Assembly (NCBI GenBank): GCA_031273395.1
Contig: JAISRX010000307.1
Coordinates: forward strand, 1 to 37,445
Direction: 5' to 3'
DNA from: Bacteroidales bacterium
GTDB taxonomy: Bacteria > Bacteroidota > Bacteroidia > Bacteroidales > UBA4181
DNA length: 37,445 nt
The position numbers were made by a program, and so were the translations under genes. The notes below the pieces were generated by a model. It worked only from the letters and a program-made list of their open reading frames with translations, made no database searches and was not told the origin of the DNA. The number at the start of each line of letters is the position of its first letter. Position 1 is the stretch's first letter. Positions 11,449 through 11,628 of the stretch are shown piece by piece.

Positions 11449-11628
11449 GGGACGTCCCAATGCGACAGCGGGACGTCCCAATGAGACGGAGGGACGTCCC
11501 AATGCGACGGAGGGACGTCCCAATGTGACGGAGGGACATCCCAATGTGACGGAGGGACATCCCAATGCGACGGAGGGACATCCCAATGTGACGGAGGGAC
11601 ATCCCAATGTGACGGAGGGACATCCCGA
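11449..11628. repeat. Tandem array of 8 full units plus 1 partial unit of a 21-bp repeat (GGGACGTCCCAATGCGACGGA)
   Basis: Units start at 11449, 11470, 11491, 11512, 11533, 11554, 11575, 11596 and 11617 (partial). The first four carry the 10-bp palindrome GGGACGTCCC and the last five carry GGGACATCCC. The array ends 66 nt upstream of the ATG at 11382. Confidence 0.95.

Follow-up and report, generated by a model that had tools for sequence, protein, structure and literature searches.

A non-coding 21-bp-period tandem array upstream of a ~220-residue protein gene, and its counterparts in at least seven bacterial phyla

The DNA analysed here, referred to throughout as the window, comprises 37,445 nucleotides of a Bacteroidales bacterium (positions 1 to 37,445 of contig JAISRX010000307.1, GenBank assembly GCA_031273395.1) and is apparently a whole short-read metagenome contig. 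At 11449..11626 it carries a tandem array of 21-bp units, to which no strand is assigned, and this array is followed on the minus strand by an AT-rich spacer of 66 nt (11383..11448) and then by gene P0001 (10720..11382, minus strand). The 220-amino-acid product of P0001 belongs to a family characterized by a three-helix bundle, a proline-rich linker and an FN3 domain, and this gene was found to be the conserved partner of the array, since similar arrays lie upstream of about 65 of 75 homologues.

Using Tandem Repeats Finder (TRF) and in-phase stacking of the units, the window array was determined to have a period of 21, 8.5 copies, 94% matches and no indels, with a score of 286. This agrees with the original prediction, made from the letters of the window alone, of eight full units and one partial unit in exact phasing, and the stacking likewise bore out its two unit subtypes, four proximal and five distal to the gene. 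The perfect palindrome GGGACGTCCC is present in the four gene-proximal units, starting at 11449, 11470, 11491 and 11512, and GGGACATCCC in the five distal units, starting at 11533, 11554, 11575, 11596 and 11617, while no further occurrence of GGGACNTCCC was found outside the array in the whole 37 kb window. The predicted unit consensus held overall and was corrected in two details, in that the variable position is C, T or A rather than C or T (unit 2 has A) and unit 1 terminates in ...GACAGC; the predicted 66-nt gap between the array and the ATG at 11382 was correct. Concerted evolution within the array is evident from its blocks of unit subtypes. Because the contig apparently derives from short reads, the copy number of the window array could be under-assembled.

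Homologous loci were collected in two rounds. The first sampling covered the contigs of three close P0001 homologues (loci L001, L002 and L003), and a family alignment search then yielded 32 distant metagenome loci and 72 reference-genome loci. Just upstream of the family gene, L001 carries ~14 units of CGTTGTCTTCAACCAAAGTTT and L002 carries ~10 units of AAAATGTTTTTCGGACATCCC, and the contig of L003 breaks within GGACATCCC, 95 nt ahead of the ATG. Among the 75 family genes with enough upstream DNA, TRF detected a period-21 array of 2–35 units, ending 25–250 nt before the start codon, in about 65. Autocorrelation, which is independent of TRF, placed lags 21, 42 and 63 at the top in the great majority of upstream regions. 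The period was 21 in 58 of the 61 tandem arrays found in 63 kb of upstream windows, and the remaining 403 kb of the same loci contained only four or five period-21 arrays, mostly near fragments of family genes; period-21 arrays are accordingly ~190-fold enriched upstream of family genes. The carriers belong to Bacteroidota, Planctomycetota, Verrucomicrobiota, Acidobacteriota, Cyanobacteria (Hormoscilla), Armatimonadota and Myxococcota. Arrays are also present in complete genomes, namely those of Minicystis rosea DSM 24000 and Flavobacterium sp. SM2513 and several closed chromosomes of metagenome-assembled genomes, and are therefore not assembly artefacts. The array persists with the family from 100% down to 25% protein identity and across loci with GC contents of 34–66%, and the unit consensus sequences are mostly unrelated between loci, the 21-mer consensus being unreliable for arrays with a 42-nt super-period.

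The genomic setting of the family gene was compared over the same loci. Family genes often occur in several copies per genome, and no conserved neighbouring gene was found beside them, each locus having unrelated neighbours. The gene that follows usually encodes some surface protein (SusC-like, BACON, LRR or Big_2) in termite-gut Bacteroidales, and outside this group the family gene often stands alone. The array is no peculiarity of the window locus, as nearly every family member across the phyla has one; the "accessory operon" of the original prediction is not a conserved unit, since the downstream genes differ in every locus. These results demonstrated that the window array represents a conserved non-coding cis-element with a period of exactly 21 bp, which accompanies a family of ~220-amino-acid proteins in at least seven phyla, a conclusion that we hold with high confidence. 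Because a period-21 array lies upstream of almost every family member, the array and the gene constitute a previously unrecognised two-part module, which, with the short spacer that joins them, is chromosomal and autonomous.

The protein family itself is large and carries no familiar label. Metagenome-assembled Prevotellaceae, Tannerella and other Bacteroidales encode the nearest homologues of P0001, and a profile search of 1.84 billion representatives returned 7,664 clusters (50% identity) at E≤1e-3 and 1,413 at E≤1e-30, whose members are nearly all ~220 amino acids long. Three longer proteins of ~305 amino acids (P0094, P0145 and P0155) have ~88 extra N-terminal residues, and their starts were probably mis-called through the open frames of the array. 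The AlphaFold model (mean predicted local distance difference test score, pLDDT, 91.8) consists of a three-helix bundle (residues 11–89), the proline-rich linker and an FN3 sandwich (residues 121–218). Foldseek retrieved generic FN3 domains only for the whole protein and nothing significant for the N-domain alone, and searches with the family protein of Pfam, PHROGs, NCBIfam, PADLOC and the sequences of the PDB gave no match. No homologues were found on 72,556 plasmids, 50,697 phages or 2.9 M viral contigs. The family products are cytoplasmic.

The internal anatomy of the arrays is marked by dyad symmetry. Inverted repeats are enriched in the units, with a mean best arm of 4.47 nt versus 3.55 nt in shuffled sequences, and a dyad arm of at least 5 nt was found in 39% of arrays versus 13% of shuffles; many of these dyads are perfect palindromes with no gap, for example GGGACGTCCC, GGTTAATTAACC and TTGTCGACAA. 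The arms are less variable than the linkers in 16 of 22 arrays (p=0.02), a comparison that is partly circular in that the arms were picked from the consensus. The two strands are symmetric, with 168 G-T versus 163 A-C mismatches and a balanced base composition; no bias towards UUCG or GNRA tetraloops was found in the arrays, and no Rfam family matched in the window or in 20 loci. The period equals exactly two helical turns irrespective of GC content, over the whole range of 34–66%, or of the internal layout of the unit. As for coding capacity, 11 of 57 arrays lack an open sense frame and 15 of 57 an open antisense frame, differences between units show no 3-nt periodicity (0.436 observed versus 0.441 in the null), array-spanning frames reach the ATG of the gene in 11 of 40 loci versus 7.6 expected, and the open reading frames (ORFs) of the window that run across the array are without credible starts. 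The description of the array as a phased (two helical turns), dyad-bearing, non-coding element is supported by these data.

Copy number was compared between closely related loci. The arrays of L005 and L006 comprise 8 and 14 units, respectively, with flanks 99–100% identical and genes 97.5% identical, and those of the paralogues L040 and L041 comprise 8 and 20, so that the proposal of a copy-number-variable element held for homologous loci. The homology between L005 and L006 (97.5–100%) ends precisely with the family gene's stop codon, the downstream genes being different, and it reaches ~1.5–1.8 kb upstream before it ends. Short-read contigs break at the arrays of L003, L011, L025 and L042.

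A second period-21 array, detected by TRF at 35553..35747 with no strand assigned, has the unit TTTGCGCCAAGGCGCAAACAG and the dyad TTTGCGCC/GGCGCAAA, and it is the sole other period-21 array of the window, just as the prediction of a single look-alike had stated. The units of the two window arrays differ in sequence, and the second array has a 63-bp super-period and sits between susD and a GH28 lipoprotein gene, with no family gene adjoining. A hairpin (GAGCAGC...GCTGCTC) lies ahead of this array, and on its other side ~70 nt lead to a likely true start at 35817, which gives the lipoprotein signal MIRIFVFFFF...SGC; this order of hairpin, array and spacer is the same as that of the first array, without the family gene. 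The second array is of the same element class as the first.

The position of the window array relative to promoter and terminator signals was then considered. A terminator scan identified, on the minus strand, a terminator-like hairpin (11641-11662) with a run of seven Ts (11630-11636), together spanning 11630..11662 and abutting the distal end of the array. Farther upstream on the same strand, sequence reading and TRF identified a slippage-prone C15 homopolymer (11731..11745; G15 on the plus strand) in the putative leader, and beyond it lies a canonical Bacteroidota promoter (11854..11883, minus strand) with a −33 TTTG at 11880-11883, an 18-nt spacer and the −7 box TACTTTTG at 11854-11861. 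This promoter candidate sits 235 nt upstream of the array, with the C15 tract and the hairpin intervening. The 66-nt spacer between array and gene contains near-matches to the −7 box, TATATTTC (11412-11419) and TAAATTTT, and no exact Bacteroidota −7 box. The predicted placement of the array between a hairpin and the core promoter of the gene thus stood as regards the hairpin but not the promoter, whose exact match lies upstream of the array; a weak promoter may lie within the spacer.

The same question was addressed in relatives by scanning 37 Bacteroidota loci for the exact −7 box TAnnTTTG. It occurs once in 3.7 kb of spacers, whereas in the 10.2 kb preceding the arrays it occurs 19 times in the sense and 13 times in the antisense direction, typically with a −33 TTTG, so that −7 boxes are ~7 times denser upstream of the arrays than in the spacers. 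In four relatives, inverted repeats of 27–43 nt (core TTGTCCCATAATTTACATTAT) surround a segment of 95–118 bp upstream of the array that contains a −7 box (L001 21-189, L002 3417-3565, L037 1748-1924 and L041 1924-2127). Because −7 boxes are denser upstream of the arrays and these four relatives carry invertible promoters, the array more likely lies in a transcribed leader, and the Bacteroidota arrays appear to be located downstream of the promoter, in the 5′ leader. No terminator was found between array and gene in the window spacer, and one is present in just 3 of 57 loci; the shortest spacers measure 28–32 nt (L014 and L056). In the metatranscriptome of a relative, one contig lies on the gene and another joins array units to the spacer, a weak indication from two short contigs. 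The sigma-70 scan of the loci outside Bacteroidota gave no strong matches anywhere.

Several observations concern the leaders themselves. The −7 boxes of the invertible segments in L001, L002, L037 and L041 point away from the gene, and these segments resemble invertible promoters sampled while turned OFF; the contig of L001 ends ~20 nt beyond one inverted-repeat arm, and an inverton is absent upstream in the window itself. Long (AC)n runs occur in the leader/promoter region of L049, upstream of the array, and of L061, and they represent a second kind of slippage-prone tract at the same position as the C15 of the window. A 147-amino-acid minus-strand ORF (11375-11818) crosses the C15 tract, the hairpin and the whole array and has its stop 5 nt past the gene ATG (ATGCATAG). 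The loss or gain of one C in the C15 tract would close this ORF early, and ribosomes traversing the hairpin within it could in principle govern termination. The terminator scan also reported a minus-strand hairpin with a T-run (TCCCGTCAAGGGACGGGG ATTTTTT) at 11346-11363, within codons 7–15 of the 220-amino-acid gene, and this hairpin includes GGGACG, a half-site of the array dyad.

Among the remaining features of the window, a co-oriented gene for a 601-amino-acid lipoprotein (8842..10647, minus strand) lies downstream of P0001; it has no Pfam match and is not kept beside the family elsewhere. The flanking genes are housekeeping genes, namely lepA, a gene for a cyclase-HD protein, pyrI and a RelA/SpoT homologue. 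Two inverted, REP-like copies of a GC-rich double-hairpin element, with 82% column identity and the core GTAGAGACGCGGC..GCC.CGTCTGTACATCACCG.AACCG.AGGGGCAGG, are located at 8688-8755 and 12046-12112, where they bracket the array, the 220-amino-acid gene and the lipoprotein gene. In L002, a DUF805b RNA motif (Rfam RF02914, 48.6 bits) was found at 5046-5081, downstream of the family gene.

Comparison of paralogues revealed two evolutionary compartments. The paralogues L001, L037 and L038, and likewise L002 and L040, are 87–100% identical in nucleotide sequence from about codon 11 on, and are unrelated ahead of it, over array, spacer and the initial ~10 codons, with a sharp boundary at about nucleotide +30 of the coding sequence. 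Such a mosaic boundary suggests either gene conversion of the gene bodies or exchange of a 5′ cassette; among the paralogues, everything from the array through the spacer to about codon 10 varies as a single cassette set on a homogenized gene body. The arrays recur across genomes in distinct types: GGACRTCC in the window, L002, L003 and L061; ACCAAAnTTTGGT in L001, L037, L044-46 and L060; and TTGCAGGA..CATTTAA in L038, L040/41, L043 and L056. An earlier interpretation, that the arrays evolve faster than the protein, was revised on these data, because the bodies are homogenized from about codon 11 on, whereas the 5′ cassettes remain different from one another and reappear in other genomes.

The array type was further found to follow the N-terminal tail of the protein. 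Array similarity tracks residues 2–4 and 9–10 around a conserved D-Y-I-P, with a partial correlation of 0.31 given the rest of the protein (permutation p=0.0025 over 110 pairs of at least 55% identity, in a test that ignores phylogeny). The window, L002 and L003 have MHR(S/K) and the GGACRTCC core in common, and L002 is 89–90% identical to paralogues with other tails and other arrays; the window and L002 both read MHRS, and their Ser codons differ (TCG versus AGT). The covariation could mean that the tail reads the array. Pairing of the array RNA with the start region was tried as the cause of the codon covariation and rejected, with duplex z values of ~0 and a mean cognate rank of 28.3 of 57.

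Taking these data together, we tentatively favour a reading in which the array is a phased double-stranded DNA platform situated in a transcribed leader, to which a dimeric protein would bind cooperatively, as the original prediction had proposed for such a platform; the product of the gene itself would be the simplest choice of protein. Each unit would constitute one dyad site per two helical turns, and since one site recurs every two turns, all sites would face the same side of the helix. A dimeric protein would fill these sites cooperatively, the most economical candidate being the product of the adjacent gene, which would act through its variable N-terminal arm. Site occupancy would set, and probably auto-limit, the expression of the gene and of whatever follows it; the number of units, altered by slippage, would set the strength of the effect; and in the window the element would work together with the upstream promoter, the C15 tract and the terminator hairpin. 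This reading is backed by a period of exactly two turns, by palindromes without a gap, by the symmetry of the strands and by the covariation of tail and array. That a protein binds, whether it does so at the level of DNA or of RNA, and whether the outcome is repression or activation are all inferred.

Several findings weigh against the DNA platform. About 10 of the 75 family genes are without a detectable array, and the same class of array is also met with apart from any family gene, both in the second window array and in Bacillus (Subirana & Messeguer, PMC8161180). The gap between dyad arms spans 0–9 nt, which suits a hairpin better than one conserved dimer geometry. No nucleic-acid-binding fold can be recognised in the protein, nor is the protein basic (mean pI 7.6; net charge −1.2 for the N-domain and +1.5 for the C-domain), and in many members the N-terminal arm consists of just 1–2 residues before D-Y-I-P. 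The covariation of tail and array could be plain linkage, with gene conversion homogenizing the bodies, and the array is probably transcribed, which makes a role at the RNA level possible.

A wider formulation, which we regard as somewhat unlikely, takes the array and the helical-bundle/FN3 protein as a previously unrecognised two-component system. Specificity would reside in an exchangeable cassette made up of the array and the first ~10 codons, and the protein would polymerize on its own array, as DNA or RNA, via its N-terminal arm. Its logic would resemble that of Rep proteins and iterons, of ToxN and ToxI, and of Cas proteins and CRISPR repeats.

An explanation that dispenses with a dedicated reader protein, and that we hold to be unlikely, is tuning or contingency in cis only. 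Slippage-prone, hairpin-capable 21-nt units in the 5′ leader would act through leader length, RNA stability, transcription pausing or access of Rho, and heritable changes of length would tune or switch expression, alongside the invertible promoters, (AC)n and poly-C tracts of the same family. Near-identical loci do differ in copy number (8 versus 14 and 8 versus 20), the palindromes favour slippage, and other hypermutable devices are found in the same leaders, namely the C15 of the window, (AC)n in L049 and L061, and the invertons of L001, L002, L037 and L041. The absence of a nucleic-acid-binding signature from the protein and the existence of same-class arrays apart from the family gene (the second window array; PMC8161180) also speak for it. 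Such an element does not account for the exact period of 21 in 58 of 61 arrays over seven phyla, for the retention of arrays by one protein family at 25–100% identity, for the greater conservation of dyad arms compared with linkers, or for the covariation of tail and array.

It is distinctly unlikely, in our estimate, that the array acts as an RNA partner, that is, that the transcribed units form local hairpins or a fold-back rod bound or processed by the adjacent protein, with translational autoregulation or a ribonucleoprotein as the outcome, in the logic of type III toxin-antitoxin systems such as ToxIN. This would fit an array that lies on the strand of the gene, downstream of the best promoter candidates and abutting the translation start region, with spacers down to 28–32 nt, in a module that is autonomous and toxin-antitoxin-like. 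In the predicted fold of the sense leader of the window (z = −6.8), the array forms a rod of 10-bp helices with the two unit subtypes paired via G-U; hairpins would suit the varying distance between dyad arms, and the metatranscriptome contig of the relative spans array units and spacer, if weakly. The sense strand, however, has no preference for G-U (168 versus 163) and no asymmetry of composition or tetraloops, the terminator of the ToxIN layout is found in just 3 of 57 loci, and no Rfam family matches. The protein is not ToxN-like, not basic and without a PADLOC match, the array and the start region are not complementary, and a single-stranded RNA gives no ground for a fixed 21-nt period while stems and loops vary.

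A neutral minisatellite, an ancestral 21-bp array hitch-hiking with the gene and keeping its period by unequal crossing-over alone, would agree with unit sequences that are unrelated between most loci and with concerted evolution within arrays, as in the subtype blocks of the window. We consider it very improbable, given the ~190-fold enrichment, the persistence over seven phyla down to 25% protein identity, a period that has barely drifted, dyads in excess of shuffles and arms better conserved than linkers; a neutral array would moreover be deleted. A coding origin, in which 21 nt are seven codons of a heptad repeat or part of a leader ORF coupled to the gene, is hardly credible and was ruled out by the absence of 3-periodicity, the many closed arrays (11 of 57 sense versus 15 of 57 antisense) and the lack of an excess of ATG-reaching frames (11 of 40 versus 7.6 expected), periods of 18 or 24 being allowed to it as well as 21, even though the window array has no stop codon in any of the three minus-strand frames, one of them (WDVPPSH) makes every unit difference synonymous, and the 147-amino-acid ORF from 11818 spans the array and stops 5 nt past the gene ATG.

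Four kinds of known system invite comparison with the module. The phase-variable, inverton-driven operon leaders of Bacteroidales, such as those of the UpxY/UpxZ capsule loci, resemble what is seen in the termite-gut Bacteroidales relatives, where an invertible promoter, a long leader, a small first gene and variable surface-protein genes follow one another in this order. Unlike UpxY, the family gene is not NusG/KOW-like (no Pfam match and a different fold), in other phyla it stands alone, and the window is without an inverton. To our knowledge, the 21-bp array has no counterpart in UpxY leaders.

The type III toxin-antitoxin systems (ToxIN, CptIN and TenpIN) are alike in being an autonomous pair with a co-oriented array directly upstream of one gene, and in a repeat length that is fixed within a family while the sequence varies. 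Their units measure 34–45 nt in 2–6 copies, in contrast to 21 nt in 5–35 copies here; a terminator between array and gene and an RNA-specific strand signal are absent here, and the protein is a helical bundle with FN3 rather than a ToxN/AbiQ endoribonuclease. A ToxIN-like system was rejected on the missing array-gene terminator, the other fold and the lack of a PADLOC match.

The iterons of Rep initiators and the ParR/parC-type centromeres of plasmids share with the module head-to-tail repeats of about two helical turns, which in those systems lie beside the gene of a cooperative binder, as well as a repeat sequence specific to each element at conserved length. The window array also shows the 17–22-bp phased direct repeats beside an AT-rich region that mark iterons. 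The family protein, by contrast, is without a Rep (winged-helix) or Par-like fold or domain, and the array is chromosomal, among housekeeping genes (lepA, relA and pyrI), and probably lies in a transcribed leader. The term iteron in its replication sense, which the original prediction had brought in as a likeness, fails here, and a replication iteron or a phage or plasmid element was rejected, in view of the missing Rep-like gene, the chromosomal housekeeping context and the lack of plasmid, phage or viral homologues.

The array also resembles the "enigmatic" bacterial tandem repeats of Subirana & Messeguer (Int J Mol Sci 2021, PMC8161180), which have a constant size of 20–21 or 52 nt and a variable sequence and occur in many phyla. 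The available text of that paper notes that the length equals two DNA turns, proposes a polymerizing protein or small RNAs, and assigns no function. Common to both are non-coding, head-to-tail units of 20–21 nt whose size is fixed and whose sequence differs by array, and the window array, with a 20–21-nt non-coding unit of the same size and unrelated sequence, fits this constant-size class. The paper, as far as its available text goes, is a genome census that gives no fixed gene position and no associated protein, whereas the arrays described here are tied to one family, lie 25–250 nt upstream of its genes in the same orientation, and have dyad symmetry. No published link between such repeats and a protein family was found in the literature searched, and within that literature the link is new. 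One large subset of the unexplained 20–21-nt repeats is now connected to one family with thousands of members in at least seven phyla, and genome annotation is affected as well, through spurious ORFs called across the arrays and short-read contigs that break at them. This connection makes a hitherto descriptive puzzle testable, with protein-array binding and dependence on the 21-bp period and on copy number as predictions; the module is only ~1 kb long, and Flavobacterium sp. SM2513 and Minicystis rosea DSM 24000 are cultured carriers. If the protein does read its own array, the module would be a new repeat-plus-protein system, and otherwise a widespread new type of leader element; the two-component reading, if true, would provide the first functional handle on the constant-size 21-nt repeats.

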